From assembly GCA_024239055.1 (NCBI GenBank), contig JANBVJ010000002.1, positions 3,874 through 67,873 of the forward strand: a stretch of 64,000 nucleotides of DNA, written 5' to 3'. Of the stretch, positions 6,736-41,386 are shown one piece after another. This DNA is from Patescibacteria group bacterium. Its GTDB lineage: Bacteria > Patescibacteriota > Minisyncoccia > Minisyncoccales > UBA10102. How positions within the stretch are numbered: the first letter of the stretch is position 1; the number at the start of each line of letters is the position of its first letter. The notes beneath the pieces are model-generated. The model saw only the letters and a program-made list of their open reading frames with translations, made no database searches and was not told where the DNA came from. Position numbers and translations under genes: made by a program.

Positions 6736-6920
6736 TTCCCTTCCTGTTTTAATTCATAGAAAAATTGTTGGCATTTCATTCCTTCTGCAAGAGTAGGATG
6801 ATATTCCTTACAGTTTGCATCCCAATAACATCTCCTACAAATTTGATGTTTGATGCACCAACCACACTTGCAAAATTTGTGACCAAAAAGAATGCATTTC
6901 CAGTTCTTTGTCAAATCCAT
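6732..6920 (-). CDS. cysteine-rich small protein
   Basis: CILFGHKFCKCGWCIKHQICRRCYWDANC. Confidence 0.45.
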   Translation of the reverse strand: MDLTKNWKCILFGHKFCKCGWCIKHQICRRCYWDANCKEYHPTLAEGMKCQQFFYELKQEGK

Positions 6921-7086
6921 ATCATCCCTTGTTTTCTTGCACAGTCTCTACAAATTATTCCCATACCTGTAATTATTAATTTTTGATCTGTTCTAAGGCA
7001 ACCAATACATTGATTCTCTGGTCTGTGCTTATGGCATAAGTAATCAATTTCTGGATAACAATCCTCACAACCCACTTTATTTTCAT

Positions 7087-18445: not shown

Positions 18446-18702
18446 TTTGTAATCCTCAAACTCTCTTCTAGTGCTTTTCTGTCTAGAACATCTTCAAGTG
18501 TGCTTAGAACTAATTTCTTATTAAGAAAATAATTAGTTCCAGAACAATAGGCTTTGAATACTGTTAAACAAAGATCAAGTAGTTCTTGACTATCTGCATT
18601 AGTTTTTTCATGAATTGGTGCTTCTTCATCTGTAAGCATCCAAGCAGATTTATTGCTTAGATCTTTCAATGCATTTAGTACATCATTTCTGTACAAAGTC
18701 AT
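18442..18702 (-). CDS. hypothetical protein
   Basis: 86-aa ORF, 4-nt overlaps. Confidence 0.4.
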   Translation of the reverse strand: MTLYRNDVLNALKDLSNKSAWMLTDEEAPIHEKTNADSQELLDLCLTVFKAYCSGTNYFLNKKLVLSTLEDVLDRKALEESLRITK

Positions 18703-19739
18703 TTCAATAACCTCTCAAATCTGCCTTTTTCTTTCCATTGTGTTTCTGATTTTAGGAAACCATCGTTGTATGCATGTGCTGTTTTTATCTTCTGGTCTGC
18801 AAGTTGTTTCTCCAAGTCTGCAATTTTATTCTGTAGAATTTCTACAAGATTCTGGTCATTCTTGTTTTCAACTGCCTTTTCAAACAAGTCCTCTTCTGCT
18901 GAGAGTTTTGTTTGAATCTGCTCTAGTTTTTTGAGTTCTTCATCTGCAACTCCGGCTTGCTTTCTCGTGATGTTTGATTCTTCAACATAGATTCTAGATA
19001 CGCCTTGTTTGAATATCTCACCTCTAACAAAGAAGTTTCCTGCTTTAAGATCAAATAATTCATCTGCAACCTTTGGTTCACCTAAGAGTTCTGCAACAAT
19101 TTTTCTGTCTCGAAGTTCTGTAGTCTTACCACAAATTCTATTTGCACATTCTCTTCGTGCCCTTATCTCAACTTCTGAAAGATATTGTGTTGATAATATC
19201 ACTGAGATGTTTAGTTTTCTTGCTCTCTTCGTCAAGTTGATTATTGGATACCTTGAAGGTATGTTTGATCTGTTTGACTTTGTTGGAATGTAGACATCTG
19301 CTTCATCAATTACAATTATTGCTGGATTACCAACTTCTTTACCAAGTGATGAAAATCCTCTGAGGAATTCTCCTACGAATGCTTCTCTGTCATATTGTTC
19401 TTCAAAGTCGTGCAAGTTAACAACTACAGATTTTCCAAGTCTCCTTGTCTGGATTCCTATCTGCTTTGCATGATCTATTGAGAAGATCTTTGGTGTTGCA
19501 TCCTTTGATATTATTTTGAACTTTGGATACTGTAACGGAATCTCAGTGAACTCTTCTTGGTCATCTAAGAAAACCATTTGTACATCAGGTCTTTCCTTCT
19601 GAACTTGTTCTACTATTTTGAGAATCAATGAAGTCTTACCTCCACCTGTCATTGACTGAATGAACGTATGCGTTTTCAATAGTGTTTTTAGATCCAACTC
19701 AAAGACTGAGTTATCTTCTAGATTAGTTCCGAACTTCAA
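18699..19739 (-). CDS. P-loop NTPase, HerA/FtsK-like (DUF87-type)
   Basis: Walker A SMTGGGKTSL; Walker B PAIIVIDEADVYIP; ISVILSTQ sensor-like segment; C-terminal coiled coil. Confidence 0.65.
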   Translation of the reverse strand: MKFGTNLEDNSVFELDLKTLLKTHTFIQSMTGGGKTSLILKIVEQVQKERPDVQMVFLDDQEEFTEIPLQYPKFKIISKDATPKIFSIDHAKQIGIQTRRLGKSVVVNLHDFEEQYDREAFVGEFLRGFSSLGKEVGNPAIIVIDEADVYIPTKSNRSNIPSRYPIINLTKRARKLNISVILSTQYLSEVEIRARRECANRICGKTTELRDRKIVAELLGEPKVADELFDLKAGNFFVRGEIFKQGVSRIYVEESNITRKQAGVADEELKKLEQIQTKLSAEEDLFEKAVENKNDQNLVEILQNKIADLEKQLADQKIKTAHAYNDGFLKSETQWKEKGRFERLLK

Positions 19740-19952
19740 CTAAAATTTCACTCCTTCGATTTGTTTTTTGATCTGTTTTTCTGTATAAGATTTTCCAAAA
19801 CCAGAATCAGTTTGAATTCTCAAACATTCAACTTTTGGGTTTTTTGCTAATCTTCCATCAAGATGTAATGCCCAAAATATTGCATGGTGTTGGTTTTTGA
19901 ATGCTCTAAATACCGTTCCACGATCTCTTACTATCCAAACATAATCAGTCAA
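19740..19952 (-). CDS. hypothetical protein
   Basis: 70-aa ORF. Confidence 0.4.
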   Translation of the reverse strand: MTDYVWIVRDRGTVFRAFKNQHHAIFWALHLDGRLAKNPKVECLRIQTDSGFGKSYTEKQIKKQIEGVKF

Positions 19953-20740
19953 TCTTTATCACTCCTGTCTAACTTTGTGATGTCATCTTTGTGTTTTACA
20001 ACAAGTCTTTTGAAAGCCCATGACAACTCGTTAATCTCATCTTTTGTGTATGAGACTTCGATGCTGTCTGTTTCTTTACCAAGTATGAATGATGGTTCTA
20101 CTTCGTTCTTACTGCACTTTTCACAAACGCATGGAGACCTGTAGTTTATGTTCCAACCTTTTTCAGAAAATACTGCATCTTCATCAAGTCTTGATTCTAA
20201 TGTTTTATCAATCACTTTGATGACTCTCTCTATATCTGTAAGAGTTACTAACATCTCAGTCCTTATTGGATCTAAGAAACCTGCAAACGAGATGATCTCG
20301 TGTTCGTCAATATTATCTATCTTTGCATGTTTGATTACATGAGTCCTTTCTTCAATAATCTTATCAACGTCAAAGTCTGTAACTGCAACACTTACGTTTG
20401 ATCCAACATTAACATCAATAACTGATGCCAAGTGTTTTCCATCTTTTGAAACAGCGAGTACAGTAAACTTGTTTGTCTGTTTGTCTCTGATTTCGTATTC
20501 CTCGTATTCCTTCTTGAATGGTTTTGATTCAAGTCTGTGTAACTTTGCAAGTGCTGACTTTAACAGTCTTACCTGTAATTTACTTTCAGGAATATTCCAA
20601 TAGGTGAGTACGTTTCTTCCTTCTGACTTGTTGTGTTCAAACGTTACTGCAAAGTACAACTCTTTCTTATCACTGTTGAAAACATCTATCCAAATGTTTT
20701 CACTGATGTAGTCCATCTGTGCTTCGTATTGTTTTGTCAA
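19949..20740 (-). CDS. hypothetical protein
   Basis: 263-aa ORF, no motif recognised. Confidence 0.45.
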   Translation of the reverse strand: MTKQYEAQMDYISENIWIDVFNSDKKELYFAVTFEHNKSEGRNVLTYWNIPESKLQVRLLKSALAKLHRLESKPFKKEYEEYEIRDKQTNKFTVLAVSKDGKHLASVIDVNVGSNVSVAVTDFDVDKIIEERTHVIKHAKIDNIDEHEIISFAGFLDPIRTEMLVTLTDIERVIKVIDKTLESRLDEDAVFSEKGWNINYRSPCVCEKCSKNEVEPSFILGKETDSIEVSYTKDEINELSWAFKRLVVKHKDDITKLDRSDKD

Positions 20741-22290: not shown

Positions 22291-22590
22291 TTACCCTAAC
22301 ACATTCACATAGTATTTTCTTGAAACATGCAAAGATGAATCAGCAGTAGCATAAGTTTTAGCAGGGCTACTTGGCATCCCTTTTGGTAATTTACCAGAAG
22401 AATAATACCTATAATATTCTGCTTCGCTTTCAATTCCTAATTTTTTTACAACCTTTTGGGCTTTGTCATAAGGAAATAATTTGATAGGTTCTTTGAGTTC
22501 TCCACTTTCTTTTTGTCTTTTTTTAAGACATCTTCTACATAAATGAACTCCATAATTCCTTCCACAATACATACAACATGTTTCGGTCAT
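22291..22590 (-). CDS. zinc-ribbon protein with one copy of the LPKGxPxxP repeat unit
   Basis: CMYCG...CRRC, then YDKAQKVVKKLGIESEAEYYRYYSSGKLPKGMPSSPAKTY, matching repeats in 23659..24951. Confidence 0.5.
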   Translation of the reverse strand: MTETCCMYCGRNYGVHLCRRCLKKRQKESGELKEPIKLFPYDKAQKVVKKLGIESEAEYYRYYSSGKLPKGMPSSPAKTYATADSSLHVSRKYYVNVLG

Positions 22591-23411
22591 TTTTCTCTTA
22601 ACTCCTTTAGAACTGGTTGTCGAAGTTTGCCCTGTGACTTCATATATTCTACAACTGCTGTCATACCTTTGAGTTTCTTTTTCATTTTTTCTGATTGAGG
22701 ATAGCCAGTGTAGTTGACTTTGCCAACATAGTTTCCTTTCTTATCTTTTAGTTCAAGTGCTGTAATATCCCTCTTCTCAGAAGTAAAACTATCAACAATG
22801 AAATCTCTCTCAAGTTTTTTCTTGAATTTCCTCCAAGTCTCCTGCCTTACTGAATCATAAGTTGATGTTGGTTCTTTTACTACAATTCCTTCCAAGTCCA
22901 ATTTCTCAACTACCTTCAATAGATCTTTTGACTTCCATTGTGATATTAGAGTAAAAGGACTCTTTGGAATTTGTTCTAGTATTTTTCTTCTTTCTGTAAA
23001 TGGTTTTTTAGTTAGATCTTTTCCTTCAAATTTTAAAATATCAAATGCCACGAATGTAGCCGGATTTTTGTTTGATAGTAATGAAATCTTCATTTGGTTT
23101 AGTAGGTGCATTCTCTTTTGAATTGCTGGAAAGTTTGCAATTAAAGGAGTATCCAATATGCAGATCTCACCATCAATTATTGTGTCTGGTTCTAATGCCA
23201 TTGATTCTACTGCTTTACTAATGACCTCTGGAAATTGTACTGACTTTGGTTTTCCATCATCTCTAATTAGGGTAATGTCTTTAATTCCTCGTTCTTGATA
23301 GCCTACTGACATGAAACAACGCATCCCATCCATTTTTGGTTCTGCAATCCAGTCATTGAATGACCCAATCTTATCCCAATAATCTAGAAATGGTTTTGAA
23401 AAATTAGTCAA
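22587..23411 (-). CDS. lig: ATP-dependent DNA ligase (minimal, 274 aa)
   Basis: Motif I EPKMDGMR (KxDG), motif III IIDGEI, IIIa FVAFDIL, IV EGIVVK, V WRKFKKK; C-terminal OB-like region ending LRQPVLKELR. Confidence 0.85.
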   Translation of the reverse strand: MTNFSKPFLDYWDKIGSFNDWIAEPKMDGMRCFMSVGYQERGIKDITLIRDDGKPKSVQFPEVISKAVESMALEPDTIIDGEICILDTPLIANFPAIQKRMHLLNQMKISLLSNKNPATFVAFDILKFEGKDLTKKPFTERRKILEQIPKSPFTLISQWKSKDLLKVVEKLDLEGIVVKEPTSTYDSVRQETWRKFKKKLERDFIVDSFTSEKRDITALELKDKKGNYVGKVNYTGYPQSEKMKKKLKGMTAVVEYMKSQGKLRQPVLKELREK

Positions 23412-23662
23412 TTGTAACCTTCTCCTATCTTTGGTTTTTCTACTTGCTGTTCTAAAATTGAAACTGCACTCAATAACTCATCTCTAAGTAGTTTTGCAAT
23501 TCTTCTTACAGTCGGTCTTGGAATACCTATCTCGTTAACTACTTTGCTGTATAGTTCTTGTTTGTCAGTTACACCTTTTTTGATATAACTCATAATAATT
23601 TCTTTTACTATTTTTTGTTGGTTAGGAGTTCCCAAATAACCTGTCTTACTATCAAAAGTCAT
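23408..23662 (-). CDS. small HTH DNA-binding protein (paralogue of 3829..4035)
   Basis: VVNEIGIPRPTVRRIAKLLRDELL. Confidence 0.55.
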   Translation of the reverse strand: MTFDSKTGYLGTPNQQKIVKEIIMSYIKKGVTDKQELYSKVVNEIGIPRPTVRRIAKLLRDELLSAVSILEQQVEKPKIGEGYN

Positions 23663-24951
23663 TTTGTTCCTCTCCTATAGCAACTCATTGTTTCTCTTTC
23701 ATTCTGATTTTTTGAGAAGTATTTATCTGGATTTCTTGGCATATTCGATGGTAATTTTCCTTTTCTTCTTAATTCAGAAAATTGCAGTGCTGTTTTTATC
23801 CCAATTTTTTTACAGTAATCACTTGCTTCTTCAAATGTCATAAGTTCTTCTCTTTGAAGAAAACTATGCCAACCTTTCCATTCTTTTTTGAAAAAGATTC
23901 TTGGGTTTCTTGTTAGACCTTTTGGTTTATTTTTAAATGCATGAAATTCCCCACTTGTCTGAATATCATTTTGTCTGCACCAATCACTTGCCTGTTTGTA
24001 TGTAAATTCGTCTTTGTATAGCAATTCTGACCAATGTTTTTTATATTGTTTAAGTGGACTTGATGGCATTGTTTTTGGTAGTATTCCTTTTCCCTTTAAT
24101 TCAAAGAATTGAATCTGTGATGTTACTTTGTGTTTTATAATTAATTTTCTTGCTTGTTCAAATGTCAGGAATTTTATTTTCTTAGTTCCGAAGAAATCAT
24201 AATAAGTTCTCCATTCTTTTTTGTACATTCTTCGTACATTGACTGAAAAAGATTTTGGTAATAATCCACTTTTCTTTGCTTCTAACAATTGTTTAAATGA
24301 TGTAATTTTATATCTCCTAACTGTTTTTTTATGTTCTTCAAAACTCATAATTTCTCTTTTCTTTACTTTCTTTACAATTATTTTCTTTACAATTCCAGAA
24401 TCCCATTTGCTGTTCTTATTTCCTGTTAAGAAATGATTCCAGTTTATCCATCCTTTGTTTTTGTAATATCTTTGTGGTTGTTTTAGTAATTTGTTTAATT
24501 CTTTATACTTTCTTACATTTTTAGTATAATCACTATATGATTTGAATTTGTATGGTATTACTAATTTTTGAGATTCTTTGTATGAAAGTGGGTTAGTGTT
24601 TAAAAAAATTTCCCAACCTTCCCATTGATCTCTATATTGAAAACAACAATCAGGTGATTTAGGAAAACCTTTTGGTTTTGGCGTTCTTACATATTCTCTC
24701 ATACTTTTAATTTTGTTATCTTGTGCCCATTGCTTGACAATATCATATTCTATGAATTTTTTTGCTTTTGAACCACCTCTTCCCACTCTTCCCTTTCTTG
24801 AATAGAAACTACTTGGATCACTTGGTAATCCTTTTGGTAATTTTTTTGCACTAAATAGTTTATTGTAATGTGTATAACTTTCAATTCCTAATTCTTGAAC
24901 TACAGTTTGAGCATCATTATACGATAAGATTGTAGAGGATCTACCTTTCAA
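23659..24951 (-). CDS. tandem-repeat protein (about seven 55-60-aa repeats)
   Basis: Recurring units such as YNDAQTVVQELGIESYTHYNKLFSAKKLPKGLPSDPSSFY and FEEASDYCKKIGIKTALQFSELRRKGKLPSNMPRNPDKYF, several ending W.GW..FL. Confidence 0.6.
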   Translation of the reverse strand: MKGRSSTILSYNDAQTVVQELGIESYTHYNKLFSAKKLPKGLPSDPSSFYSRKGRVGRGGSKAKKFIEYDIVKQWAQDNKIKSMREYVRTPKPKGFPKSPDCCFQYRDQWEGWEIFLNTNPLSYKESQKLVIPYKFKSYSDYTKNVRKYKELNKLLKQPQRYYKNKGWINWNHFLTGNKNSKWDSGIVKKIIVKKVKKREIMSFEEHKKTVRRYKITSFKQLLEAKKSGLLPKSFSVNVRRMYKKEWRTYYDFFGTKKIKFLTFEQARKLIIKHKVTSQIQFFELKGKGILPKTMPSSPLKQYKKHWSELLYKDEFTYKQASDWCRQNDIQTSGEFHAFKNKPKGLTRNPRIFFKKEWKGWHSFLQREELMTFEEASDYCKKIGIKTALQFSELRRKGKLPSNMPRNPDKYFSKNQNERETMSCYRRGTK

Positions 24952-25226
24952 TTTCTATTCCCCTTCTCTGTTTTGATCTCCATGAAAATATCATTATGCT
25001 TTTTTATTATATCTCCTGCAAATTTTACTGCGTTGAAATGTTCTTCAAGTCTTAATCTCATTTGAAAATCATAGATGGGATCATCTTCTAACAATGCGAA
25101 CTTAGTAAATCCAAAGGATTCTAGAATTTCTCTTGCTTTACTGTTAGTTGTCTTTGCTTTGTAAATAGAAAATTTATAGATAAATGGTATTTTTGGTTCT
25201 GATTTACCCTCTATGAAAGGTGTCAT
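24948..25226 (-). CDS. hypothetical protein
   Basis: 92-aa ORF. Confidence 0.4.
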   Translation of the reverse strand: MTPFIEGKSEPKIPFIYKFSIYKAKTTNSKAREILESFGFTKFALLEDDPIYDFQMRLRLEEHFNAVKFAGDIIKKHNDIFMEIKTEKGNRN

Positions 25227-27694
25227 TAAATTTCCTCTCCACTCTTCTTCTTGATCACTGGAACTTTTAATTTTCTAGCCTCTTTTCTAGTTGGTAATAG
25301 TGAACTTTCTTTTACTACCATTAGTTCTAACATTGATTTTCTTATTTCTGCTTTCTTTGGCAGTTTTATTTTTTCTGGATTTTCACCATCTGTAACACAT
25401 CGACTTTGTTGATTCTTGTACAGTAATCTATTCCATTTGACCTTTAAATCATATTCAAATACTTTTGTACCACCACGTTGTTTGATTTTTGCCATTATCA
25501 AATGAACCCGAACTCTTGCTTTCTTTGCTCCTTTGCTTTTGCTTCTTCCTTTTCTTATCAATCTTCCAATTACTTGTTCAAACTTTGCATAAGTGAAAGG
25601 ATATACAGCAAAGATTATGTTACCAGATACTTTTTGTAAACCATCAAAACCTTCTGAAAGTGCTGATGAACAAATTAAAACATCTCTACCATTATTGAGG
25701 AATGGATCTTTACCACTTTTTTCTTTTCCTGTATAGATACCTACTGAGTATCCTTTTTCTTCAAGTCTTTGTTGTAACTTTTCTACTATTCCTGTAACAT
25801 ACTCACAATAAATTATGGTTTTTCCTTTTATCCTTTTGATTATTTCAGGGATTTTTCCTTCTAATGCTATCTGTTCATAGTTTAACCAATGCATTTTTTC
25901 TAGGTCTTTTAATGTACAACCTTCTGGTAAGTAAGATGTAACTTCAATCAGATCTTTTTCATTTAATCCAATTACTTCTATATTCAGATTTCCCATAAAT
26001 CTCATACAGTAAGGCAAAAATAGAGTATGAAGGCTTGATGCGTTTCTAACTGTACTTGTTTCTCCAACATTTTCTAATGCTTTCAATAATTCTTTATCAT
26101 TATGAGCACATAACTCTAACATTGATTTGCCTTCTTTGATGTTATTGATTACAGGTGTTGCTGAAAGACATAATACTTTGATATTTTTTAACTTTGCAAG
26201 TTTTCTAATCAAATGATCTACTGAATATCTTCTCAGAGATTTTGTCTCATCATCTCTAACTTTGATGTTTTGTGCTTCATCAAGAATTAGAAAGTCTATT
26301 GGTTCTTGTTTTATTTTTGAAATTGTTGTTCTAACATCTTTGATACTGAATTTTTCATAGTTGATTATATGGTAGTTTGCTACTCCTTTGACAAACTTGT
26401 GTGGTATCTTACCTACTGATATTACTGAATTTGGAAAACACTCCAATAGTTGTTCTCTCCATTGTTCTAAAATCGAATTTGAGCATACTATCAATGTATA
26501 TTTTGAATTTACTACCCTTGTAGATAGAATTCCTGCAATTGTTTTTCCTCTACCTGAACCTGACATGTTAAAGAATCCATCTATCTGTGTCATTATCCAA
26601 GCGTTGAAAAATTGCATTAGTGTTGGCTTGATCTTTGGATTCCAACCATCAGGAACTTTTATGTTTTTTACTTCATCATATTCAGATAAGAAAGTCTTTA
26701 CCACAGTATCATGGAATTTATTTCCATTTAGTTTTTCTTTTTTGATTTTTGCTACTACTGAATTTCTTATTTTATTTTCTTTGCCAACTGCTGATTTCCA
26801 AAAAAACTGACAAGTAATTACTACATGTTGATCAAAGGTTTTTGGATTAAGTGCACTATAATCTATATTTCTAATATCTTTTAGAAGTTTTCTAGCATCT
26901 ATATTATCTTCATCTATTATTTTTGATCTATCTTTTGATTTTGTGATTAAAGTCTGTGTATCTATTTTCTTCCCTTCTGGATTTACAACAATACCTCCAT
27001 CTGTTAATGCCATATTACCATAGGGTTTGTCAAATCTCTCGGTTCTAGCCCAATATAATAACGCCTTTCTACCTTGTGGAGTTTTTCTTAAATCCATAAA
27101 GTTGTTGAAATATGATCTTCTGAATAGATTTTTGTCTTTGAAACAACCCTCTGCATCAAACCATCGATACAAACTCCCATCTGTCCATATCTTGTAAAAT
27201 GACCAGTGTTCTCTTAATCTTATAATTACATCTCTAATTCTTTTTTTATCTACCTCATTTTTATTTTCTGTTCCAAGAAAACCATACCATCCTCCCCTAC
27301 CCTTCCAATCTTCATCAAATACATCTGGTTCCTTAACTCTGGACTTTGATGTTTTAGTTAATTCCTTTGTAAATAATTTTAAGAATTTTTTATCTTCTTT
27401 AGTGGTAACGAATAATTTTCTTTCATTAAAGAATTTTTCCAACTGTTTACTTGTATATTTTGAATATTTTTTACTCCAATTTTTTTGTACTTCGTTTAAT
27501 GCCTTTGTTATTGCTGTTCCTCGTTTCTTTTTTAGGATTCCTGTATAGTGTTTTTCCCACCAAAGTTCTTCAAGGTACTGAGTTCTTTCAACCTTCTTTG
27601 TTTTACCAGTGACACGTACATCATTGAAACCTTTTGGTAATACCTGCCCTGTGCTTAAATCAATTTTATTGTCTAAATCATTTGCCATTGCCAT
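25226..27694 (-). CDS. SNF2/SF2-family helicase (822 aa)
   Basis: Walker A MSGSGRGKTIAG; motif II LILDEAQNIK; motif III LSATPV; motif VI QVIGRLIRKG. The N-terminal region carries W.GW..FLG repeat-like elements. Confidence 0.85.
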   Translation of the reverse strand: MAMANDLDNKIDLSTGQVLPKGFNDVRVTGKTKKVERTQYLEELWWEKHYTGILKKKRGTAITKALNEVQKNWSKKYSKYTSKQLEKFFNERKLFVTTKEDKKFLKLFTKELTKTSKSRVKEPDVFDEDWKGRGGWYGFLGTENKNEVDKKRIRDVIIRLREHWSFYKIWTDGSLYRWFDAEGCFKDKNLFRRSYFNNFMDLRKTPQGRKALLYWARTERFDKPYGNMALTDGGIVVNPEGKKIDTQTLITKSKDRSKIIDEDNIDARKLLKDIRNIDYSALNPKTFDQHVVITCQFFWKSAVGKENKIRNSVVAKIKKEKLNGNKFHDTVVKTFLSEYDEVKNIKVPDGWNPKIKPTLMQFFNAWIMTQIDGFFNMSGSGRGKTIAGILSTRVVNSKYTLIVCSNSILEQWREQLLECFPNSVISVGKIPHKFVKGVANYHIINYEKFSIKDVRTTISKIKQEPIDFLILDEAQNIKVRDDETKSLRRYSVDHLIRKLAKLKNIKVLCLSATPVINNIKEGKSMLELCAHNDKELLKALENVGETSTVRNASSLHTLFLPYCMRFMGNLNIEVIGLNEKDLIEVTSYLPEGCTLKDLEKMHWLNYEQIALEGKIPEIIKRIKGKTIIYCEYVTGIVEKLQQRLEEKGYSVGIYTGKEKSGKDPFLNNGRDVLICSSALSEGFDGLQKVSGNIIFAVYPFTYAKFEQVIGRLIRKGRSKSKGAKKARVRVHLIMAKIKQRGGTKVFEYDLKVKWNRLLYKNQQSRCVTDGENPEKIKLPKKAEIRKSMLELMVVKESSLLPTRKEARKLKVPVIKKKSGEEI
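27611..27620 (-). promoter_or_regulatory. GACACGTACA motif copy, intragenic (5' part of the SNF2 gene)
   Basis: accagt|GACACGTACA|tcattgaaacc, 75-84 nt into the ORF. Confidence 0.4.
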
Positions 27695-27885
27695 TAATCA
27701 TCACTCCAAGTATAGTCATTAACTGAATCAGGATGATCTTCCTTCATGTGGGAATACAAATTTTGTTCATAGAACATTTTATCGCATTCTGGACATGATT
27801 CAAAACCTAATTCTTCTGATGTTGGATTTGGATCGATTATTCTTTTCAATTTTTTATATCCTCCTTTGATATACAATCTCCACAA
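27694..27885 (-). CDS. C2H2-type zinc-finger protein
   Basis: CPECDKMFYEQNLYSHMKEDH. Confidence 0.5.
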   Translation of the reverse strand: MWRLYIKGGYKKLKRIIDPNPTSEELGFESCPECDKMFYEQNLYSHMKEDHPDSVNDYTWSDD

Positions 27886-28006
27886 ATGTAATCCTCAGTC
27901 TTTGTGGACTTGAAAGCCATTGTAATGTGAGCATTACAAAGAGGACATTCTTCTCCATCTGTACTCCAAAATTCTTTGAAGTCACCAAAGTCACCAAAGT
28001 CATCAG

Positions 28007-28258
28007 TCATTTTTTCTTGCCTCCTTTTTTGAAAATTCTTACTGCTTCACAGTGGGAACAATCCTGTTTATTGAATTTCCAACCATCACATTCGCAGTAA
28101 AGATCGTACTTGTATTTTTTATCTGCAACTTTAACAGTGTAGTGTCCACCACTTGAGGATTGTACATAGAATATTTCTTTTGAATCTTCATCACGTTTTA
28201 CAAGTCCCTTTTTTACTAAAGACCTTGCTTTTTGAATTACACCTATTGATAGACTCAA
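28007..28258 (-). CDS. SWIM zinc-finger protein
   Basis: YCECDGWKFNKQDCSHCEAV matches the CxCx(n)CxH SWIM signature. Confidence 0.65.
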   Translation of the reverse strand: MSLSIGVIQKARSLVKKGLVKRDEDSKEIFYVQSSSGGHYTVKVADKKYKYDLYCECDGWKFNKQDCSHCEAVRIFKKGGKKK

Positions 28259-28512
28259 TTTGATCTCTCCTTTGATTCATATTCTAGAAATAGAATATCT
28301 TCTAATTCACCATCTTCAACTTCAAAACTTCTAAGTTTTTTCTTCAATAGACTTTCTACTGCAAGAATTCTTGAACCTTCTCTGTTGAATCTTCTTGATT
28401 CACGATCAATCTCTTCTTGAGTTAGTTCTTGATTAGCATGACCTGTCCAAGAATTACGTTCTCCATCGTGATTCTTATCATAAATAATTTCATACCAAGT
28501 CATTTTTACCAA
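28255..28512 (-). CDS. hypothetical protein
   Basis: 85-aa ORF. Confidence 0.4.
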   Translation of the reverse strand: MVKMTWYEIIYDKNHDGERNSWTGHANQELTQEEIDRESRRFNREGSRILAVESLLKKKLRSFEVEDGELEDILFLEYESKERSN

Positions 28513-28880
28513 GTCCTATACTTTGTTACCCTTTGAGGGTAGATTTCTGGATTATCAGGGTCACTCAAATTTCCTAAGACATCTTCAATCCATCTTACAG
28601 GTGGATTCATTTTCAGTCTTGGAATTGCAAACTTTGTAATGTCATCAATGTGAATGTAAAAGAACACATCGGATCTTCCTCCTGTTCCTTCAACGTTGTT
28701 TCCACTTTCATCTCTGTCAGGGAAAGTATGGATCACTTCGATGAATTTTACTCTGATCTTGTATTCTTTGAGCATGAATTCTTCGAACACTTTTTCCTCA
28801 CCTTTGTTTATGATTGTGCTTTGCCAAACGCAAACTTGTGTGAATGGATTGTCTTGTTTTGTTTTACTCAATTTTACCAA
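28506..28880 (-). CDS. hypothetical protein
   Basis: 124-aa ORF. Confidence 0.45.
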   Translation of the reverse strand: MVKLSKTKQDNPFTQVCVWQSTIINKGEEKVFEEFMLKEYKIRVKFIEVIHTFPDRDESGNNVEGTGGRSDVFFYIHIDDITKFAIPRLKMNPPVRWIEDVLGNLSDPDNPEIYPQRVTKYRTW

Positions 28881-29059
28881 CCTCTCTTATCAAGATGTAA
28901 TTCCTTGATTGTATTTTCTGCTTCTGTATCTCCGAACTTTTCTGCAATCTGACCCAAGACTATACCAATTATGTTATGTGAATACGGTTTGATGTCTATG
29001 TAAGGCATTTCCGTTCTGATTTGTGCTATGAGTTCTTCTTTTGTTTCACCTAAAGTCAA
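28874..29059 (-). CDS. hypothetical protein
   Basis: 61-aa ORF. Confidence 0.4.
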   Translation of the reverse strand: MTLGETKEELIAQIRTEMPYIDIKPYSHNIIGIVLGQIAEKFGDTEAENTIKELHLDKRGW

Positions 29060-29427
29060 TTTCTATTCCTCCATTCATGTCTAAAGTCTCCCCAAATATC
29101 ACAAATGTAATCAAATTCTTTTTCTGAGAAAAAGTGATTACCACCAAAAGATGATATGTTATACCAAACTTGCGATTCTATGAACTCTCGATAATACTTG
29201 TGAGGTTTTTCAAACAAGTACAATAGTTCCTTTGATTCTTGTAACTCATATTCTTCCCAAACCAAGTAACTTGCTACTTGTAAGACATTACCGTAATCTC
29301 CAAACCATTCCTTTTCTGGAAACTTTTCTTGCAACTCTTCTGCTACTGAAATTAATCCTTCAACAGAAAGATATTGAGATTTAGGATCATGTTCATCTGG
29401 ATGCTCATCTAATTCGTATTGACTCAA
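29056..29427 (-). CDS. hypothetical acidic protein
   Basis: 123-aa ORF. Confidence 0.45.
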   Translation of the reverse strand: MSQYELDEHPDEHDPKSQYLSVEGLISVAEELQEKFPEKEWFGDYGNVLQVASYLVWEEYELQESKELLYLFEKPHKYYREFIESQVWYNISSFGGNHFFSEKEFDYICDIWGDFRHEWRNRN

Positions 29428-29711
29428 TTTTCTGCCTCCCTTTTTGCTATATCTGCAAGAACTATTCTCTGGTTTAGTGCTCTTGTTCTGATTAAGTCAA
29501 CTTCTCTTCGCAAAACATTAATTGCTTCTGACAAGTGACCTATAGTGCTATCAATTTTAGCAAGACTTACTAATGTTTCTTGAGGACTCCTTTTTGGATT
29601 ACTACATAATCGCATTGCTTTGAATTCTGGATCTTTACAAACATCACAATCACAATCGGTTTGTCCATAAACTTCTTTAACACTTTCTGATCTTTCATCT
29701 TGTTGACTCAT
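29424..29711 (-). CDS. hypothetical protein
   Basis: 95-aa ORF with CDCDVC. Confidence 0.4.
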   Translation of the reverse strand: MSQQDERSESVKEVYGQTDCDCDVCKDPEFKAMRLCSNPKRSPQETLVSLAKIDSTIGHLSEAINVLRREVDLIRTRALNQRIVLADIAKREAEN

Positions 29712-30475
29712 TTCAATCTCTCCAATAGTTCTCTGACAGCAGTTGCATTCAGTTTTGCAAATCTAAGATTAAAGTCACCATCTGCTCTTTGTTGTAGTTC
29801 TATCTCTGTTCCATTGGGAATTGATTCCTTTTTGATGTTAAGATAGTTTCCTTCTCCCAATGAACTATAATGTGTTGTTTCTTTTCTACCGAACCCAAGT
29901 TTTTCTGCAAAGTCTGGAAATGATTTTGATAGTTTTTCTTGACTCTCCCTCTCCTTTACACCAATCAAATGATTTTCTCTATTTATTTTGAATCTTCTTT
30001 GGAGTTCTGTTACAAGTTCATTGAGGATTTCATCAAGTCTGTCAATATTTGTTGGTGTAACTCGTTTTTCAAGTTTCCTTGTTAGTCCCTCTTTACTGTA
30101 ATCGCTTCTTGAATTACCTACACTTAGTTTGATTGAAAGGAAACCATATTTGTAATCATAACCTCCCCTAATAGGAACAACATCTAATTTTTCAGATGTT
30201 GTAGAATATCCATCGGGAGAAACAGCACTTGTTTTACAAAAATTGAATTGTCCATTTCTGATTTTTTTCTTTGTATGACTACCATACATATCCTTAACTG
30301 TATAGATGTCAAAGTTAAACTCTATTTTTTCTTTTTTGTCGTTAAACAAATCTCTTACTTCAAGAGATAACTTTGGATCTAGTTGCAGGACTTTTTTCTT
30401 TATTTTTAGTAATACTGAACGAGTTTCGTCAATAGTCCAAGTCTGCAATTTTCTTTGTGTGTACAATCCAGTCAA
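29708..30475 (-). CDS. hypothetical protein
   Basis: 255-aa ORF. Confidence 0.45.
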   Translation of the reverse strand: MTGLYTQRKLQTWTIDETRSVLLKIKKKVLQLDPKLSLEVRDLFNDKKEKIEFNFDIYTVKDMYGSHTKKKIRNGQFNFCKTSAVSPDGYSTTSEKLDVVPIRGGYDYKYGFLSIKLSVGNSRSDYSKEGLTRKLEKRVTPTNIDRLDEILNELVTELQRRFKINRENHLIGVKERESQEKLSKSFPDFAEKLGFGRKETTHYSSLGEGNYLNIKKESIPNGTEIELQQRADGDFNLRFAKLNATAVRELLERLK

Positions 30476-30996
30476 TTTCTATCTCTCCTTTTTACTTCTG
30501 CATTTATGTCAAAAATAGATGTGTACGTTTCACTTTTTAGTACGTTTTCAATACTTTGAACTATACTATCGATTTCGTATGGCTTGAAGATAACTGCATT
30601 GACTTTTAATCTCACCAATTCTTTTTCTTCTTCAACACTGAATAATTCATCTCCTATCACTATGATTATCTTGGATTGTTGATCAAATTTTCTTATTGCT
30701 TTCAGAGCATCAAGTCCTTCAAAATACTTGTTATCAGGATCAGGCATGTGTAGATCAATAAGGATTACATCAGGTTTGTGTTCTTTGTATAACTCGACTG
30801 CTGTTCTTCCATCGAATCCTCTTGCAACAATATCAAAATCGTGGATAGATAGATATTCACAGAATACTCCAACGGTATCACGATCATCATCTATTACAAC
30901 TACTCTTGTATCAGTCAAAGTAACACCTTTAGATTTTTTTCTGCTTTGTCTAGAAGTTCGGTTAAGAGTGAGTTGTTTGAATTTACTTTCTTCCAA
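30472..30996 (-). CDS. stand-alone response-regulator receiver (CheY-like REC) domain protein
   Basis: VVVIDDD (acidic pocket), DVILIDLHMPD (phospho-acceptor Asp), IIIVIGD, AVIFKPY (conserved Lys). An alternative TTG start at 30918 would make a TTGA overlap with 30915..31139. Confidence 0.8.
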   Translation of the reverse strand: MEESKFKQLTLNRTSRQSRKKSKGVTLTDTRVVVIDDDRDTVGVFCEYLSIHDFDIVARGFDGRTAVELYKEHKPDVILIDLHMPDPDNKYFEGLDALKAIRKFDQQSKIIIVIGDELFSVEEEKELVRLKVNAVIFKPYEIDSIVQSIENVLKSETYTSIFDINAEVKRRDRN

Positions 30997-31139
30997 GTTG
31001 CTTTACAACTTGGGCTTCTGCATACACTAAGTCTGAATCCTGACATTGCTGTTTGACCCTTTGCTGTTGCTTGTTTTAGTTTATTTTCTGCAAGGCAGGG
31101 TTCACAAAGATTAATTTTCAATCCCACCAAAACCTCCAA
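30915..31139 (-). CDS. possible zinc-ribbon protein
   Basis: CEPC...CRSPSC; overlaps the tracked REC start by 82 nt, but only 4 nt if REC starts at TTG 30918. Confidence 0.35.
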   Translation of the reverse strand: MEVLVGLKINLCEPCLAENKLKQATAKGQTAMSGFRLSVCRSPSCKATWKKVNSNNSLLTELLDKAEKNLKVLL

Positions 31140-31597
31140 GTTCCATCTTCTTCTTGATGAAACTCATCAGGATGAATTTTGTCTCTTAATTTTTCTGCTT
31201 GTTCTTTTGTTGTTTTTAGATATATTGATTCCAGAGTAATTCTCTGATCATCTCTTCGTTCATCATCTTCGTTAATGAAATATCCACCAACAGTGCCTTT
31301 GTATTTTTTTGCCAAAGTCACCAATTTTTTTGCAGTTGGAGAATAATTCTGTGTGTCTTTTGGAGCAATATTTGGATAACCAGTCAATAGTTTCTCAGCA
31401 ATTTTTGTTGGAAGTCTTTCAAAGGTTCCATAGTCTGACTTGATTCCTAATGGATACTTTGCTCCAAATAGTGGTTTCAAAGCATGTTTACTGATGTAAA
31501 CGAATGGTGCAATCAAGTCTAGTCTTTGTTTTCCTATCTTACGGAATTTCTCTTCAAGATACTTTCCGTTTTCTAAACGACCTATTACAACACTCAT
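31118..31597 (-). CDS. hypothetical protein
   Basis: 159-aa ORF immediately downstream of the Ku-like gene. Confidence 0.45.
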   Translation of the reverse strand: MSVVIGRLENGKYLEEKFRKIGKQRLDLIAPFVYISKHALKPLFGAKYPLGIKSDYGTFERLPTKIAEKLLTGYPNIAPKDTQNYSPTAKKLVTLAKKYKGTVGGYFINEDDERRDDQRITLESIYLKTTKEQAEKLRDKIHPDEFHQEEDGTWRFWWD

Positions 31598-32367
31598 TAT
31601 TTTTTGCCTCCTACATCAAAGAATGAAGATTTTTTGGTTGCTTTCTTAACAAAGTCTTTTACTAACTTTCCTTCAATAGCCTTTTGAATATTTTTTGCAT
31701 ATTCATCTTGAATTGAAGCAACATCAACTATTTTTAATGAATCAATCCATTTCTTTGCTAATGCTTTTTCTTCTTTGCTGACTTTAACATCTACTTCTTC
31801 ATCAAGTTCGTTGATTACTTCCTGATATGGAATATCAAGTAATGCAATTGCGTGTCCTTCTGGTCTGAGTATTCCTAGTTTTTCTCTGCCTGACTTTGAT
31901 GTAGTATATTTTACAACTATGTCCTTTCCGTTTGATACTGCACTGTACAATATTTTGAATGCTTGTAATCCATCATCTTCATTCTCTGCAAGTGCTAATT
32001 CATCTTTGTTGAATTCTCTAGGTAGAATGTAACTGCCACCAATTGTAACTCTTGTATCTTCTTTTGGTCTTGCTCCAAGAATTTCTATTTTACTTACTTG
32101 TTTTTTTATGCTTTTCAATAATTCCTTATCGATAACTTTTCTTTCATCTGCTGAGTAAACAAATGCAGATAAAACTTCACCTGATGGAATTACTTTGCCA
32201 CAGTCAACATTTTTACAAACATCTTGTCTGCCTACATCGGATTCACAATGAGGGCATGTATTTGTGAATGGTGACTTGCTATAAGATGTCTTTACAAAAC
32301 TACAAAGTCTAATTGGAATATTCTTAGTTCCTAACTTGATTAACAGATTGAAATTTGTATGTACCAT
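31597..32367 (-). CDS. ku: Ku-like DNA end-binding protein
   Basis: Collinear with bacterial Ku as I recall it: LGTKNIPIRLCSF (cf. FGLVNVPVKVYSA), Cys-containing insert, KIEILGARP...GGSYILPRE (cf. IEVLEFV...RSYFLEPD), DIVVKYT...REKLGILRP, then a helical tail. Confidence 0.65.
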   Translation of the reverse strand: MVHTNFNLLIKLGTKNIPIRLCSFVKTSYSKSPFTNTCPHCESDVGRQDVCKNVDCGKVIPSGEVLSAFVYSADERKVIDKELLKSIKKQVSKIEILGARPKEDTRVTIGGSYILPREFNKDELALAENEDDGLQAFKILYSAVSNGKDIVVKYTTSKSGREKLGILRPEGHAIALLDIPYQEVINELDEEVDVKVSKEEKALAKKWIDSLKIVDVASIQDEYAKNIQKAIEGKLVKDFVKKATKKSSFFDVGGKK

Positions 32368-36829: not shown

Positions 36830-37161
36830 TTTAGAATACCTCCTTCAAAAATTTTGGTACTGATGTTTTCTAATTCAACATCTGGTGAATGTCTACCATG
36901 AACATACACATTTTTACCGTTTTTGTCTAGGTATGAATACTGTGTAGAAGTTTGGTATCTATGTTGAAAACCATAGGTACAGTCAATTTTTCTTCTTCTA
37001 CCAAGTCTAAGTTTTCCAACTTGAACGTTGATAGATTTGAAGTGGTCATAATCTTTTTGTGCATCTTCTTTAGTGCCAAAACACATGACACCAAAGTTTT
37101 TTGCGTTGAAATTCCATTGTTGGGCTTTGTCAAATACCCAATCTATGCTTGATTTACTCAA
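36826..37161 (-). CDS. hypothetical protein
   Basis: 111-aa ORF; preferred over the alternative-frame ORF 36927..37133. Confidence 0.45.
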   Translation of the reverse strand: MSKSSIDWVFDKAQQWNFNAKNFGVMCFGTKEDAQKDYDHFKSINVQVGKLRLGRRRKIDCTYGFQHRYQTSTQYSYLDKNGKNVYVHGRHSPDVELENISTKIFEGGILN

Positions 37162-37862
37162 GAGGCATCTACCTCCTGAATAATTGCTTTCTTGTCAACA
37201 GTGATTGTTGAAGCGTTCTTGTACAATGCAAGTTCAGTTCTGTCACCAAAACCATAACTACTTCCATAGTATTGCTGACCGTTTTTGATGTATCCATTTC
37301 TGATTGTTATAGAGTCACCTTCATTGACTGAATCTGTCTGACCATTCCACAAAGTAATTACGATGTGATCTTCTCTTTCATCTTGAAGAGTTACTTCACA
37401 GACTTTGTAATTCTGACCAGTTTTCTTTGATGTTACATCTCTGACTTTGGTTTTTTTGATGATAGTTCCACGAACATTGATTCCTTTTGTTATTTGGTAT
37501 CCTTGAATCACTTGCAAGTGGGTTGTTGTTAATAGTTCATACAATTCCTTGTTTCGTTTGATATTTGCATCACTCTCGAACATTTGTTCAATTGTTACAA
37601 ATTCAGGTAAAACAAAGGTTTGCTCAACTACTGTAGGTTGACAGTCTTTGTATTTTTTTGTCTCTGTATGTTTTGCAACTTGTTGTAATGCTCTGTCCTG
37701 ACCTGATGCTCTGAATTCTTTTCCACATTCACATGTTGGTTTGAATCCCAATGTGAGATATGCACCACGCAAATGTTTTCCTTCTAGATCCTCAAAAAGA
37801 GTTTCAGGTGAACCAATAAAAGTTAGTTCAGTATCCATTGCTTGGTTGTAGTAGCCTGTCAA
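37158..37862 (-). CDS. OB-fold (RPA-like) single-stranded DNA-binding protein
   Basis: VRGTIIKKTKVRDVTSKKTGQNYKVCEVTLQDEREDHIVITLWNGQTDSVNEGDSITIRNGYIK fits the archaeal/eukaryal RPA OB-fold pattern. Confidence 0.55.
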   Translation of the reverse strand: MTGYYNQAMDTELTFIGSPETLFEDLEGKHLRGAYLTLGFKPTCECGKEFRASGQDRALQQVAKHTETKKYKDCQPTVVEQTFVLPEFVTIEQMFESDANIKRNKELYELLTTTHLQVIQGYQITKGINVRGTIIKKTKVRDVTSKKTGQNYKVCEVTLQDEREDHIVITLWNGQTDSVNEGDSITIRNGYIKNGQQYYGSSYGFGDRTELALYKNASTITVDKKAIIQEVDAS

Positions 37863-38715: not shown

Positions 38716-39705
38716 CTACTCCTTGTTTGCTTTCTTTATGATTTGAATTTTGTGTTCATGTAATTCAGTATTTGGTACTAGGAATACTTCTTCTTTAATT
38801 TTGACTGTGGTGTGAGTAATACCTATGTGCGTTACTTCTCCTTCCTTTCCTTCATATTTTATTTGATCACCATTACCTAATCCACTGTGTTTAAGTCCTT
38901 CACCATAAGACCAACTTCTGAAAACTTCTCTGAATCCGGTTCCACCTGCAATCAACAGTCCCATAATACCTGCAATGATAACCCAATAAAGAATTGGAAT
39001 AATCTCTTCACCAACACCAAGTTGTGTGATTCCTATTCCGAATATCAGTGCATAAATGATTACTGTTACAAGTGTTTTTACCATTGGCATACTTCCATCG
39101 TCACCGAAAAGATCAGAGTTGAATTTAGCCATCCACTGCAAAATTACTCTTGTACCAATAATTCCTACAACAATTAGAATTATGAATGCAATAATGTTTG
39201 GAATGTAAGTCCATAATACTCCAAGCCATGAAGATGCTTCTGTAAATCCTAACAAGTCAATTGCAATTACAAATGCGTAAATCCATGCAAACCACTTTGC
39301 AGTCATTGGAATTAGATCAGAGATTTGTCCCCAACCTGCTTTCTCATAAGTTTCTCCTGCTTTAATTCCACCTTTCTCTACGAGAAGTTTGTTTGAGAAA
39401 AGTTTCTTTAGGAATTTTCGTAATGCAAACTCTACAGCACGACCAATAAAGTAACCAATACCTAAAACTATGATTGCTGATAATACTCCTACACTGTTAA
39501 CTGCAATTGTATCTCCCCAACTTGAGAAGAGTTTTATCCAGAACTGAAAAAATGGATTTGATTCCTCAACTCCTAAAAACTCGGATACTGGTTGTTTTTC
39601 TTCAATTGCCTCTTGAGCAAATGCCAATGGAGCAAATAGAGTGCCCGACAGCATGATTGATACCGTTGATAACAGTAGAATGATTCCCCATTTGCCCTTG
39701 ATCAT
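38716..39705 (-). CDS. MscS-family mechanosensitive channel-like membrane protein
   Basis: Signal-like N-terminus and several TM helices, then GLLIAGGTGFREVF...GLGNGDQIKYEGKEGEVTHIGITHTTVKIKEEVFLVPNTEL, matching the MscS pore helix plus beta-domain pattern. Confidence 0.65.
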   Translation of the reverse strand: MIKGKWGIILLLSTVSIMLSGTLFAPLAFAQEAIEEKQPVSEFLGVEESNPFFQFWIKLFSSWGDTIAVNSVGVLSAIIVLGIGYFIGRAVEFALRKFLKKLFSNKLLVEKGGIKAGETYEKAGWGQISDLIPMTAKWFAWIYAFVIAIDLLGFTEASSWLGVLWTYIPNIIAFIILIVVGIIGTRVILQWMAKFNSDLFGDDGSMPMVKTLVTVIIYALIFGIGITQLGVGEEIIPILYWVIIAGIMGLLIAGGTGFREVFRSWSYGEGLKHSGLGNGDQIKYEGKEGEVTHIGITHTTVKIKEEVFLVPNTELHEHKIQIIKKANKE

Positions 39706-39838: not shown

Positions 39839-41386
39839 TTAGTTGGATGACTTTACTTTGTCGATCCAGTATTGGATTCCTTTGAGTCCAACTTCTCCTG
39901 CTGTTCTTCCAAACTCTGTAAGAAACTCATGTGAGAAGTGACCGTATCCTTCATTCTGTCCCCACTTGTCATGTGCAATTTCGTGGCAAAGTGTACCAAC
40001 TGCAAATGCTGAGAACTTGTCAAAGAATCTTTTTCCACCACATCTCCTGACATTCCATACAAGTGAATGTGGTTTTCTAAGACTCAAGATGTCGCCTTCT
40101 TTTGAGTAATCAGCGAATTCCTCAGTTTCCTTTGTTGTTACAAAGTCTATATCGATGTCCTCTTTGATTACATCCTTTGCAACTGCTTTGCAGACTTTGG
40201 CAAAGAACTTCATTCCTTCTGTTGGTTCAACTCTTACTGCATGTTCCCATCCCGAAGAAGAATGCTCCTTTGATGCATACGTTAGAGTGCCTTGTTCTTT
40301 CAAGTGGTCAACAACATCTGAGTCAAGTGTTCCCTGTGGGATCAAGTATGCTCCTGCCATCTTTGCTCTCTCGTTTTCAGCAGAGTCCGATGATTCTATC
40401 ATCACGTTATCTGTTCCGTATCTTTTTACAAAGATCTCCTTTGTTGTTTCTACTTCGGTTCTCTTGAGTGCTTCGTTGATCCAGTTAGCACCACAGTTTT
40501 CCTTGTCTATAAGGTCAAGTGTGTTCTCAGTGATCTCTGCATAGAGTTTTTGCAGATAAGCATCTGAGATTACATTTCTGTCAGTTGTCTGTGGAATCTT
40601 TTGTTGGATGTCTACATGCCATCTTAGATCTTGTTCAATCTCCTGAACTACACATCCTAGTTCAAAGATGATTGGATCTTCATGCTCTTCCTTTTCATAA
40701 AGGAATACTTTGGTATCCTCAACTCTCTTGACTAACTTTTGGTTTGCTCCTAGAGCAATTACTGTTGGTAGTCTTGCTGTGAACGTTTTGATCAAAGTCT
40801 TTTGTTCGATGTAGGTTCCATTGACTTTGAGTTTCTTGTTCTCTGGAACTGCAACCTTTTCTACAGAAGTGATTACTGAACCTAGTGATTCATCCTCATC
40901 GTTTTCAAAGACTGCATGGACTTGAGCACCTTGAATTTCTGGAATTTCAGAAACCCTTCTGGTATCCTCTTGGAATTCGATTAAGATTTTTCCTGTCTTT
41001 ACCCATCCTGAGACTGCTCTTGCAAAGAACTGTTTTTCTCCCAAGTTGTACCTTCCCCTCTGGTTCTTGTTGACTCGCTTATAGGAGTCCTTGAAGAGAG
41101 TGTAGATGTCTTTTTCATCTCTGAATCCGTTTCCGTTGTCTACTATATCGACTACTATTCTGCCCTTCTTATCCTGTGATACGTCACATGATATGACAGT
41201 TACAGGCTTCTCATCAAACGAGTTTGAGATGATCTCTTGGATTAATCTCCAAAGTTTCATCTCAGACATCTGAGTTGCGAAACCCTTTGTGTCGATTTCA
41301 AATCGCCTTTCAACGATTGTTTCTTTCTTCATTGTTTCTTCCACCGATTTTGAAGTGTTACGGTCTTTGTGATCCTTGTGGGACAT
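39839..41386 (-). CDS. GHKL-type ATPase (HATPase_c/MORC-like N-terminus) with C-terminal HExxH region
   Basis: N box EIISNSFDE, G1 box VDNGNGF, G2-like GRYNLGEK; C-terminal GTLCHEIAHDKWG (HExxH). Confidence 0.6.
   Translation of the reverse strand: MSHKDHKDRNTSKSVEETMKKETIVERRFEIDTKGFATQMSEMKLWRLIQEIISNSFDEKPVTVISCDVSQDKKGRIVVDIVDNGNGFRDEKDIYTLFKDSYKRVNKNQRGRYNLGEKQFFARAVSGWVKTGKILIEFQEDTRRVSEIPEIQGAQVHAVFENDEDESLGSVITSVEKVAVPENKKLKVNGTYIEQKTLIKTFTARLPTVIALGANQKLVKRVEDTKVFLYEKEEHEDPIIFELGCVVQEIEQDLRWHVDIQQKIPQTTDRNVISDAYLQKLYAEITENTLDLIDKENCGANWINEALKRTEVETTKEIFVKRYGTDNVMIESSDSAENERAKMAGAYLIPQGTLDSDVVDHLKEQGTLTYASKEHSSSGWEHAVRVEPTEGMKFFAKVCKAVAKDVIKEDIDIDFVTTKETEEFADYSKEGDILSLRKPHSLVWNVRRCGGKRFFDKFSAFAVGTLCHEIAHDKWGQNEGYGHFSHEFLTEFGRTAGEVGLKGIQYWIDKVKSSN

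Follow-up and report, generated by a model that had tools for sequence, protein, structure and literature searches.

A stand-alone receiver domain on a large mobile element appears to be a remodelled copy of a thaumarchaeal host receiver

A 64,000-nucleotide stretch of contig JANBVJ010000002.1 (positions 3,874 to 67,873; hereafter the window) encodes on its minus strand a stand-alone receiver domain protein (REC) of 148 amino acids (30472..30918, TTG start, TGA stop). The window is part of a large mobile element whose sequence relationships point to Nitrosopumilaceae, ammonia-oxidising archaea, as its hosts, and comparison of receiver sequences indicates that REC descends from a conserved orphan receiver of these hosts, termed here REC130, through a single old capture and not through repeated pick-ups. 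The copy has retained its acceptor aspartate and the helix by which receivers are recognised by their phosphodonors, whereas the switch residue and the output face have changed. We favour, tentatively and well short of conviction, the reading that REC serves as a decoy that docks onto a host kinase, or as a phosphate sink, and in either role would compete with the host's own receiver.

The receiver gene and its product

The minus strand of the window is an unbroken run of tightly packed genes, with the intact REC reading frame among them. Mechanical calling of open reading frames (ORFs) extends this frame upstream to 30996, but we rejected that start, and with it a 174-amino-acid product, because its 26 added codons (30919..30996, minus strand) sit within a conserved gene encoding a four-cysteine (4-Cys) protein in a different frame. 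The TTG at 30918, put forward in the original prediction, is in frame and overlaps the TGA stop of the upstream 4-Cys ORF as TTGA. The N-terminus that it gives, MTDTRVVVIDDD, aligns with the MTSVIVVDDD of homologues, which begin at the same position, and public gene calls all give the identical 148-amino-acid product. At the other end of the gene, the REC stop overlaps the TTG start of the downstream gene, again as TTGA, and the two REC alleles checked at the DNA level (that of the window and that of related loci L009, L010 and L100) both begin with TTG. Because all 447 nucleotides, and the protein, are identical across the seven public loci compared, three of which represent separate assemblies of Loki's Castle sediment (SDBT, SDBU and SDBV; PMC6401483), the sequence is no assembly artefact.

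The profile search that had been suggested as a check on the domain returned a match to Pfam Response_reg (PF00072) well above threshold (E = 1.1e-15; 58.1 bits against a cut-off of 30.2) and spanning positions 1-110 of the 111 in the profile, and a sequence search of the PDB matched REC to the receiver domains of Spo0A, CheY and Spo0F, with E values down to 7e-12. An AlphaFold2 model (predicted local distance difference test score, pLDDT, 84; predicted template-modelling score, pTM, 0.80) has five strands and five helices in (beta-alpha)5 order, and Foldseek aligned it to CheY of T. maritima with a TM score of 0.90. The receiver stands alone, with no output domain attached, as had been predicted. 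It was rejected as a chemotaxis CheY, since no Che family is among the Pfam matches listed for the window ORFs and the NCBIfam model CheY_Halo gives 51.7 bits against a cut-off of 200.

Origin from a host receiver

The nearest relatives of REC are single-domain receivers of 128-130 amino acids, 52-58% identical to it (closest about 57%), whose source labels read Nitrosopumilaceae, Nitrososphaerota and Nitrosopumilus sp. b1. These are the REC130 proteins (P0004/MEE9535202.1; P0188 in Nitrosopumilus sp. b1), and in six host contigs (L003-L008) their gene occupies a syntenic position, in the order argS, REC130, a second receiver gene (173-181 amino acids) and a PCMT-type methyltransferase gene, with no kinase within 6 kb of REC130 in any of the six. 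The assignment to these hosts rests on source labels together with synteny, because a scan of the genome collection was swamped by bacterial receivers: its generic patterns retrieved mostly these, and the only relevant match came from Nitrosotalea, at 39%. The second host receiver (at about 6001-6972 of the host contigs) has its best NCBIfam similarity to CpdR/CckA-type receivers.

REC shares with REC130 the single-domain architecture, the DDD pocket, the acceptor Asp, the KPYE loop and nearly all of helices alpha1 and alpha2. It differs in reading Ile-Gly-Asp after strand beta4, where the host protein has Thr-Ala-Asp, and in having His instead of Met two residues after the acceptor Asp (D+2); it also adds insertions in the beta3-alpha3 loop (five residues) and the beta4-alpha4 loop (two residues), a C-terminal tail and a mobile-element context. 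Across 170 host sequences the five active-site residues, the Ala and Asp that follow the active-site Thr (T+1 and T+2) and the Met at D+2 are 100% invariant, whereas all seven element-borne sequences have His at D+2. These seven form one clade beside the hosts in neighbour-joining analyses (bootstraps 469/500 and 268/300), and it is this single clade, together with the common His, that leads us to a single old capture. By its sequence, REC is a diverged xenologue of REC130 and not its orthologue: the window lacks the argS neighbourhood, and LIDLHMP and IIIVIGD stand in place of LLDVMMP and IIMVTAD.

The public record tells otherwise of the host, in that NCBI places the 134,924-bp contig, and with it the receiver (P0001 = MCP6727082.1), in a metagenome-assembled genome of a 'Patescibacteria group bacterium'. 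We rejected this label as evidence of the host because the closest homologues of REC are thaumarchaeal and several Pfam families of the window, namely the RPA-like protein and several DUF families, look archaeal, which we take to be so from their distribution. The label is thus probably a binning artefact.

An active site without its threonine

Alignments place the metal-binding acidic pocket at D10-D11-D12 (codons 30883..30891, minus strand; CheY D12/D13), which is invariant in the 170 host and 7 element sequences, the predicted phospho-acceptor at D55 (30754..30756, minus strand; CheY D57) within LIDLHMPD, and the conserved lysine at K112 (30583..30585, minus strand; CheY K109), followed by Pro113 (CheY P110), within FKPY. 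The original prediction had credited REC with all the hallmark residues of a receiver, and with respect to the DDD pocket, D55 and K112 it stands. It fails at the Thr/Ser position: the segment IIIVIGD, which had been named as carrying it, contains neither residue, and the position of CheY T87, occupied by Thr in 170 of 170 hosts, is held by Ile88 (30655..30657, minus strand). Ile88 falls opposite CheY T87, the Thr of Spo0A and the host Thr in a HMMER alignment to Spo0A and in MAFFT alignments that include the hosts or CheY and Spo0F; in the AlphaFold2 model residue 88 is the last of strand beta4, and the nearest Ser, S94, is six residues off, at the start of alpha4. The residues around the site have changed as well, with His57 at D+2, Gly89 at T+1 (opposite CheY A88) and the two-residue insertion in the beta4-alpha4 loop. 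The five-residue insertion, PDNKY (residues 61-65; 30724..30738, minus strand), is found by alignment in the window allele alone and is modelled with lower confidence.

A receiver without any one of five active-site residues is classed as a pseudo-receiver (PMC12632262), and by this five-residue definition the sequence of REC makes it one, with the acceptor Asp retained. It is not an aspartate-less receiver (ALR), since D55 is present. The original prediction had allowed that membership of a non-phosphorylatable pseudo-receiver clade or loss of the acceptor Asp would speak against it; REC does count as a pseudo-receiver by definition, which tells partly against the prediction, but its acceptor Asp is not lost. 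In pseudo-receivers generally, D, T and K each fall to about 65%, and beta3-alpha3 and beta4-alpha4 loops with extra acidic residues set them apart from true receivers; according to the same review, no archaeal pseudo-receiver has been investigated so far (PMC12632262). REC departs from the proteins described there in keeping the Asp, both acidic residues and the Lys, in having Ile instead of the common Ala as replacement, and in being archaeal and element-borne. Scored against the Spo0A model, it reaches 55 bits, compared with 87 bits for the host protein.

Conserved and remodelled surfaces

Kinases and phosphotransferases recognise receivers by helix alpha1 and the beta5-alpha5 loop, as known from the Spo0F-Spo0B and HK853-RR468 structures and from covariation, and output usually runs through the alpha4-beta5-alpha5 face. 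Set against the host consensus, the window allele is identical at 21 of 24 positions in alpha1 and alpha2 and at all 4 of the KPYE loop; the beta3-alpha3 and beta4-alpha4 loops with alpha4, beta5 and alpha5 are identical at 17 of 44, and the difference between the kept helices and these changed regions is significant (Fisher p = 1e-4). Positions 14, 15, 18, 21 and 22 of alpha1 are conserved in all element-borne alleles, save for a conservative D14E in P0067.

Related elements carry further alleles, which differ at the very position that Ile88 occupies: Ser in P0067/P0107 (L009 and L100; 120-124 amino acids), Thr in P0016 (L013; 124 amino acids), Thr again in P0141 and the L104 copy (L104; 125 amino acids) and Leu in P0142 (L105; 134 amino acids). 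The seven element-borne sequences thus have I, L, S, S, T, T and T at this position and also vary at T+1 and T+2, whereas DD, D, K and Pro are unchanged in all seven at pairwise identities of 55-70%. A variable Thr position beside a fixed D and K fits a function that needs phosphoryl acceptance and not a canonical switch. A metagenome scan for new element alleles returned none, only host-type copies and the contigs already known.

REC is only 53-57% identical between elements that share backbone genes at 88-96%, which places it among the fastest-changing genes of the backbone, a pattern typical of host-interaction genes. Measured against the window, the backbone comprises Ku at 88% (L009, L105), ligase at 93-96%, the ATPase at 96% and small ORFs at 80-100%. 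The REC alleles are too diverged from one another for the ratio of nonsynonymous to synonymous substitution rates (dN/dS) to be used.

In each locus with enough flank (the window, L100, L104 and L105), REC has the Ku-like gene on one side and the ligase on the other, and in L104 it overlaps the ligase start by 4 nt; L013, a 1.9-kb fragment, shows only the neighbours on the SNF2 side. The interval between REC and the ligase holds zero or one small ORF in L100, L104 and L105, and spans about 7 kb in the window (about 23408-30475), where it contains a 255-amino-acid ORF, nine small ORFs, the SNF2 helicase and a 430-amino-acid ORF. Because it differs in this way between loci, we regard the region as a hotspot of gene gain and loss.

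No kinase recognised in the window

Pfam was scanned with 134 non-nested minus-strand ORFs, which make up 91% of the window, and the search for kinases took in the 64-kb window and about 20 kb of flank in the relatives, out of contigs of 108-135 kb. None of the listed Pfam matches of the 134 window ORFs is to HisKA, HisKA_3, Hpt or a Che family, in agreement with the earlier claim that the window has no recognisable histidine kinase, and exactly one of the 134 matches Response_reg. An N-terminal ATPase domain is typical of MutL, Hsp90 and topoisomerase-type ATPases, and histidine kinases have theirs at the C-terminus. We rejected the GHKL-type ATPase of the window (39839..41386, minus strand; 515 amino acids) as a hidden histidine kinase on these grounds: its HATPase_c match, which is sub-threshold, is N-terminal (residues 42-109), and the lack of HisKA that had already been remarked on was confirmed. 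This ATPase has no sequence relative in the PDB. Potential partners for REC do exist on the side of the host, since Thaumarchaeota are rich in kinases (175 histidine kinases and 224 response regulators in 16 genomes, with 77% of the response regulators stand-alone; PMC5847659) while the window encodes none.

A possible decoy or phosphate sink

As we picture it, an ancestor of the element family would have captured REC130, and the copy would have kept those parts that dock onto a phosphodonor, either a host histidine kinase or a phosphotransfer protein, namely alpha1, the KPYE loop between beta5 and alpha5, the Mg-binding DD, the acceptor Asp and the Lys. The parts that govern output and the lifetime of the phosphoryl group would have been remodelled, by the change of Thr to Ile and by changes at T+1 and D+2, in the beta3-alpha3 and beta4-alpha4 loops and across alpha4-beta5-alpha5. 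Such a copy would tie up the kinase and divert or retain phosphoryl groups, passing on no normal signal, and a host pathway would in this way be silenced or re-tuned for as long as the element stays in the cell. We lean towards this reading because the docking helix is kept, the Asp and Lys are invariant, the switch residue is free to vary, the protein evolves fast and no kinase was found in the window. The earlier proposal that REC plugs into a host phosphorelay gains support from its descent from a conserved host orphan receiver and from the retention of alpha1, Asp and Lys.

The closest experimental parallel is the T87I mutant of E. coli CheY, which has the same change at the same position and, like REC, is a single-domain receiver with DD, D and K intact. 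This protein is phosphorylated yet cannot signal, resists the phosphatase CheZ and has its autodephosphorylation slowed about 5-fold (PMC3774744), which are properties expected of a phosphate trap and, by analogy, would fit a sink. However, T87I was made in the laboratory in a chemotaxis protein about 30% identical to REC, and its behaviour may not transfer to a receiver that has loop insertions and no aromatic residue at the Y106 position. Phosphate-sink receivers of branched pathways (such as an extra CheY; modelled in PMC4214558) are likewise rivals for one kinase, a likeness of proposed function alone; the known ones are chromosomal with canonical active sites, whereas REC would be a competitor brought in by a mobile element. 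A bolder version, in which a rapidly diversifying mimic of REC130 docks onto the host kinase, traps phosphate and shuts a central host pathway, with the Thr-less alleles as its extreme form, strikes us as doubtful.

Several points weigh against a decoy or sink. Docking and phosphorylation are predictions from sequence. REC is a pseudo-receiver by definition, and its most-changed loops are the ones that distinguish pseudo-receivers (PMC12632262), such that phosphorylation may be irrelevant to it. The five-residue insertion beside the acceptor Asp could block access of the kinase, and the diverged alpha4-beta5-alpha5 face could equally point to a new partner encoded by the element. The contigs of each allele show 0 nucleotide differences among themselves and hence offer no polymorphism from which selection might be measured. 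Finally, that the element is virus-like is our inference.

Neighbouring genes and other explanations

Two genes overlap REC. The upstream one, a zinc-ribbon-like 4-Cys ORF (30915..31127, minus strand; 70 amino acids as publicly called), is 96% identical in L009, where it has no REC beside it, and its linkage to REC is therefore not specific. The downstream one (29708..30475, minus strand; 255 amino acids) has 8 homologues, all on related elements; members of its family adjoin REC in the window and, with the gene order reversed, in L104, whereas those of L101 and L103 do not. It is 60% identical between the window and L104 (29708-30475 versus L104:587-1336), where the ligase is 93% identical. 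Its AlphaFold2 model (pLDDT 77), in which beta-sheets flank a long central helix, matches no fold in the PDB. This protein is a possible candidate for a partner of REC.

Such a partner would be called for if REC provided the element with a signal input, being phosphorylated by a host kinase and then binding a target of the element, be it the 255-amino-acid neighbour or the Ku, ligase or replication machinery, and thereby making replication, repair or a choice of lifestyle depend on the physiological state of the host. The constant position of REC within the DNA-metabolism region from Ku to ligase (window, L100, L104 and L105) speaks for this, as does its adjacency to the 255-amino-acid family in two gene orders, both genes having diverged far beyond the backbone. 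Docking face and Asp/Lys chemistry have been preserved, and the greatest change is seen in the output face, as would be expected from a new target. However, a phospho-switch normally requires Thr or Ser, two alleles have Ile or Leu, and CheY T87I cannot signal (PMC3774744). Moreover, the 255-amino-acid gene is not beside REC in L100, L105 or L013 and occurs without REC in L101 and L103, and no DNA-binding or enzymatic partner is recognisable. On balance we think a signal input unlikely.

If phosphorylation played no part, REC could be a pseudo-receiver that acts as a binding module, forming a heterodimer with REC130 or the neighbouring host receiver or blocking the kinase, with its effect set by expression level. 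WhiI/BldM heterodimers and CmrT offer precedents, one of the five defining residues is missing (PMC12632262), the largest differences from the host lie in the beta3-alpha3 and beta4-alpha4 loops, with extra acidic residues, and REC scores less well than its host counterpart against the Spo0A model. Against this, DD, D, K and Pro are invariant in every element allele, as opposed to the roughly 65% retention of D, T and K among pseudo-receivers at large; three alleles have Thr and two Ser, so that, taken together, the alleles do not form a degenerate clade; and CheY T87I can be phosphorylated. We give this explanation even less weight than a signal input. Least likely, and in our view improbable, is that REC is ordinary cargo or a decaying copy, a host-derived passenger with no role for the element or of benefit to the host only. 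Receiver domains do occur among the miscellaneous cargo of integrated thaumarchaeal elements (PMC6563490), Alteromonas phage V22 carries a CheY-like auxiliary gene (PMC7289586), and decay could explain the missing Thr and the insertions in the loops. Yet the gene is intact and translationally coupled with its neighbours, it has been kept in at least five element variants as one clade since one old capture, and conservation of its catalytic residues and of alpha1 far exceeds that of the protein on average.

Relation to known viral receivers

Receiver domains on viruses and mobile elements are already known. Foldseek against BFVD found 27 viral proteins with the REC fold at E<=1e-3, mostly hybrid kinases of phaeoviruses and giant viruses along with a few phage proteins, and six PHROG families match REC (phrog_731, 5982, 37855, 8810, 20458 and 22245). 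None of the viral or mobile-element proteins compared comes from an archaeal virus, and most are multi-domain or accompanied by a kinase. The cREC proteins of jumbo phages resemble REC in being a divergent, virus-encoded receiver fold with no kinase attached, and are defined by linkage to NAD+/ADP-ribose-processing genes (PMC7824862); we rejected this identity because the 134 ORFs include no NAD+/ADP-ribose or cyclic-phosphate enzyme and because REC has its ancestry in a two-component receiver of the host. What is specific to the present case is the descent from one host receiver, the asymmetric conservation in which the input side is kept and the switch and output are changed, the allelic series at the Thr position and the archaeal setting.

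Few archaea are as abundant in oceans and sediments as the ammonia-oxidising Nitrosopumilaceae, which have unusually many orphan receivers, and to our knowledge almost nothing is known about their control by viruses or plasmids. The retention of the docking helix and the Asp beside a variable switch residue amounts to a natural experiment on which parts of a receiver matter to the element, and it singles out the universally conserved host receiver beside argS as belonging to a pathway worth targeting. Should REC be a decoy, two-component signalling would join the host systems subverted by archaeal mobile elements, and a mimic of this kind would be the first receiver decoy of a virus or mobile element in archaea and would give an archaeal pseudo-receiver its first functional context. 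Should it not be, REC would still be the first pseudo-receiver of archaea whose evolutionary origin is defined.

The element

The window has a G+C content of 33.8% and no tRNA gene in its 64 kb; nearly all of its ORFs are on the minus strand, many with 4-nt overlaps of start and stop. About 90% of them have no Pfam or PHROG match, and scans of IMG/VR that used REC, the family alignment or the Ku-like protein as query brought up no relatives, only one unrelated REC match at 25%. Because most ORFs are unmatched and the family is absent from IMG/VR, the element looks like a member of an undescribed lineage of large elements, with contigs of 108-135 kb.

Among the recognisable genes, the Ku-like protein (31597..32367, minus strand; Pfam Ku, E = 3.6e-7) marks the upstream edge of the region that runs through REC to the ATP-dependent DNA ligase (22587..23411, minus strand; Pfam DNA_ligase_A_M, E = 2.3e-23). 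Together the two resemble a non-homologous end joining pair, unusual on an archaeal mobile element, and they may serve in the protection of linear genome ends or in repair. The large SNF2 helicase lies at 25226-27694 and the RPA-like OB-fold protein, which binds single-stranded DNA, at 37158-37862; an S-adenosylmethionine-dependent methyltransferase is also recognisable.

The Pfam and PHROGs scans of the window ORFs turned up no family of capsid, portal or canonical terminase proteins. A HerA/FtsK-type ATPase (18699-19739) matches Pfam DUF87/Zot and, weakly, phrog_2666, 'terminase large subunit' (7e-13). In viruses with double-jelly-roll capsids the genes for packaging ATPase and capsid adjoin, and since a 263-amino-acid ORF (19949-20740), 91% conserved between elements, lies just upstream of the HerA/FtsK-type ATPase, it is by analogy a candidate capsid protein. 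An MscS-like mechanosensitive channel (38716-39705) adjoins the GHKL ATPase, and both genes are kept in the related element L100.

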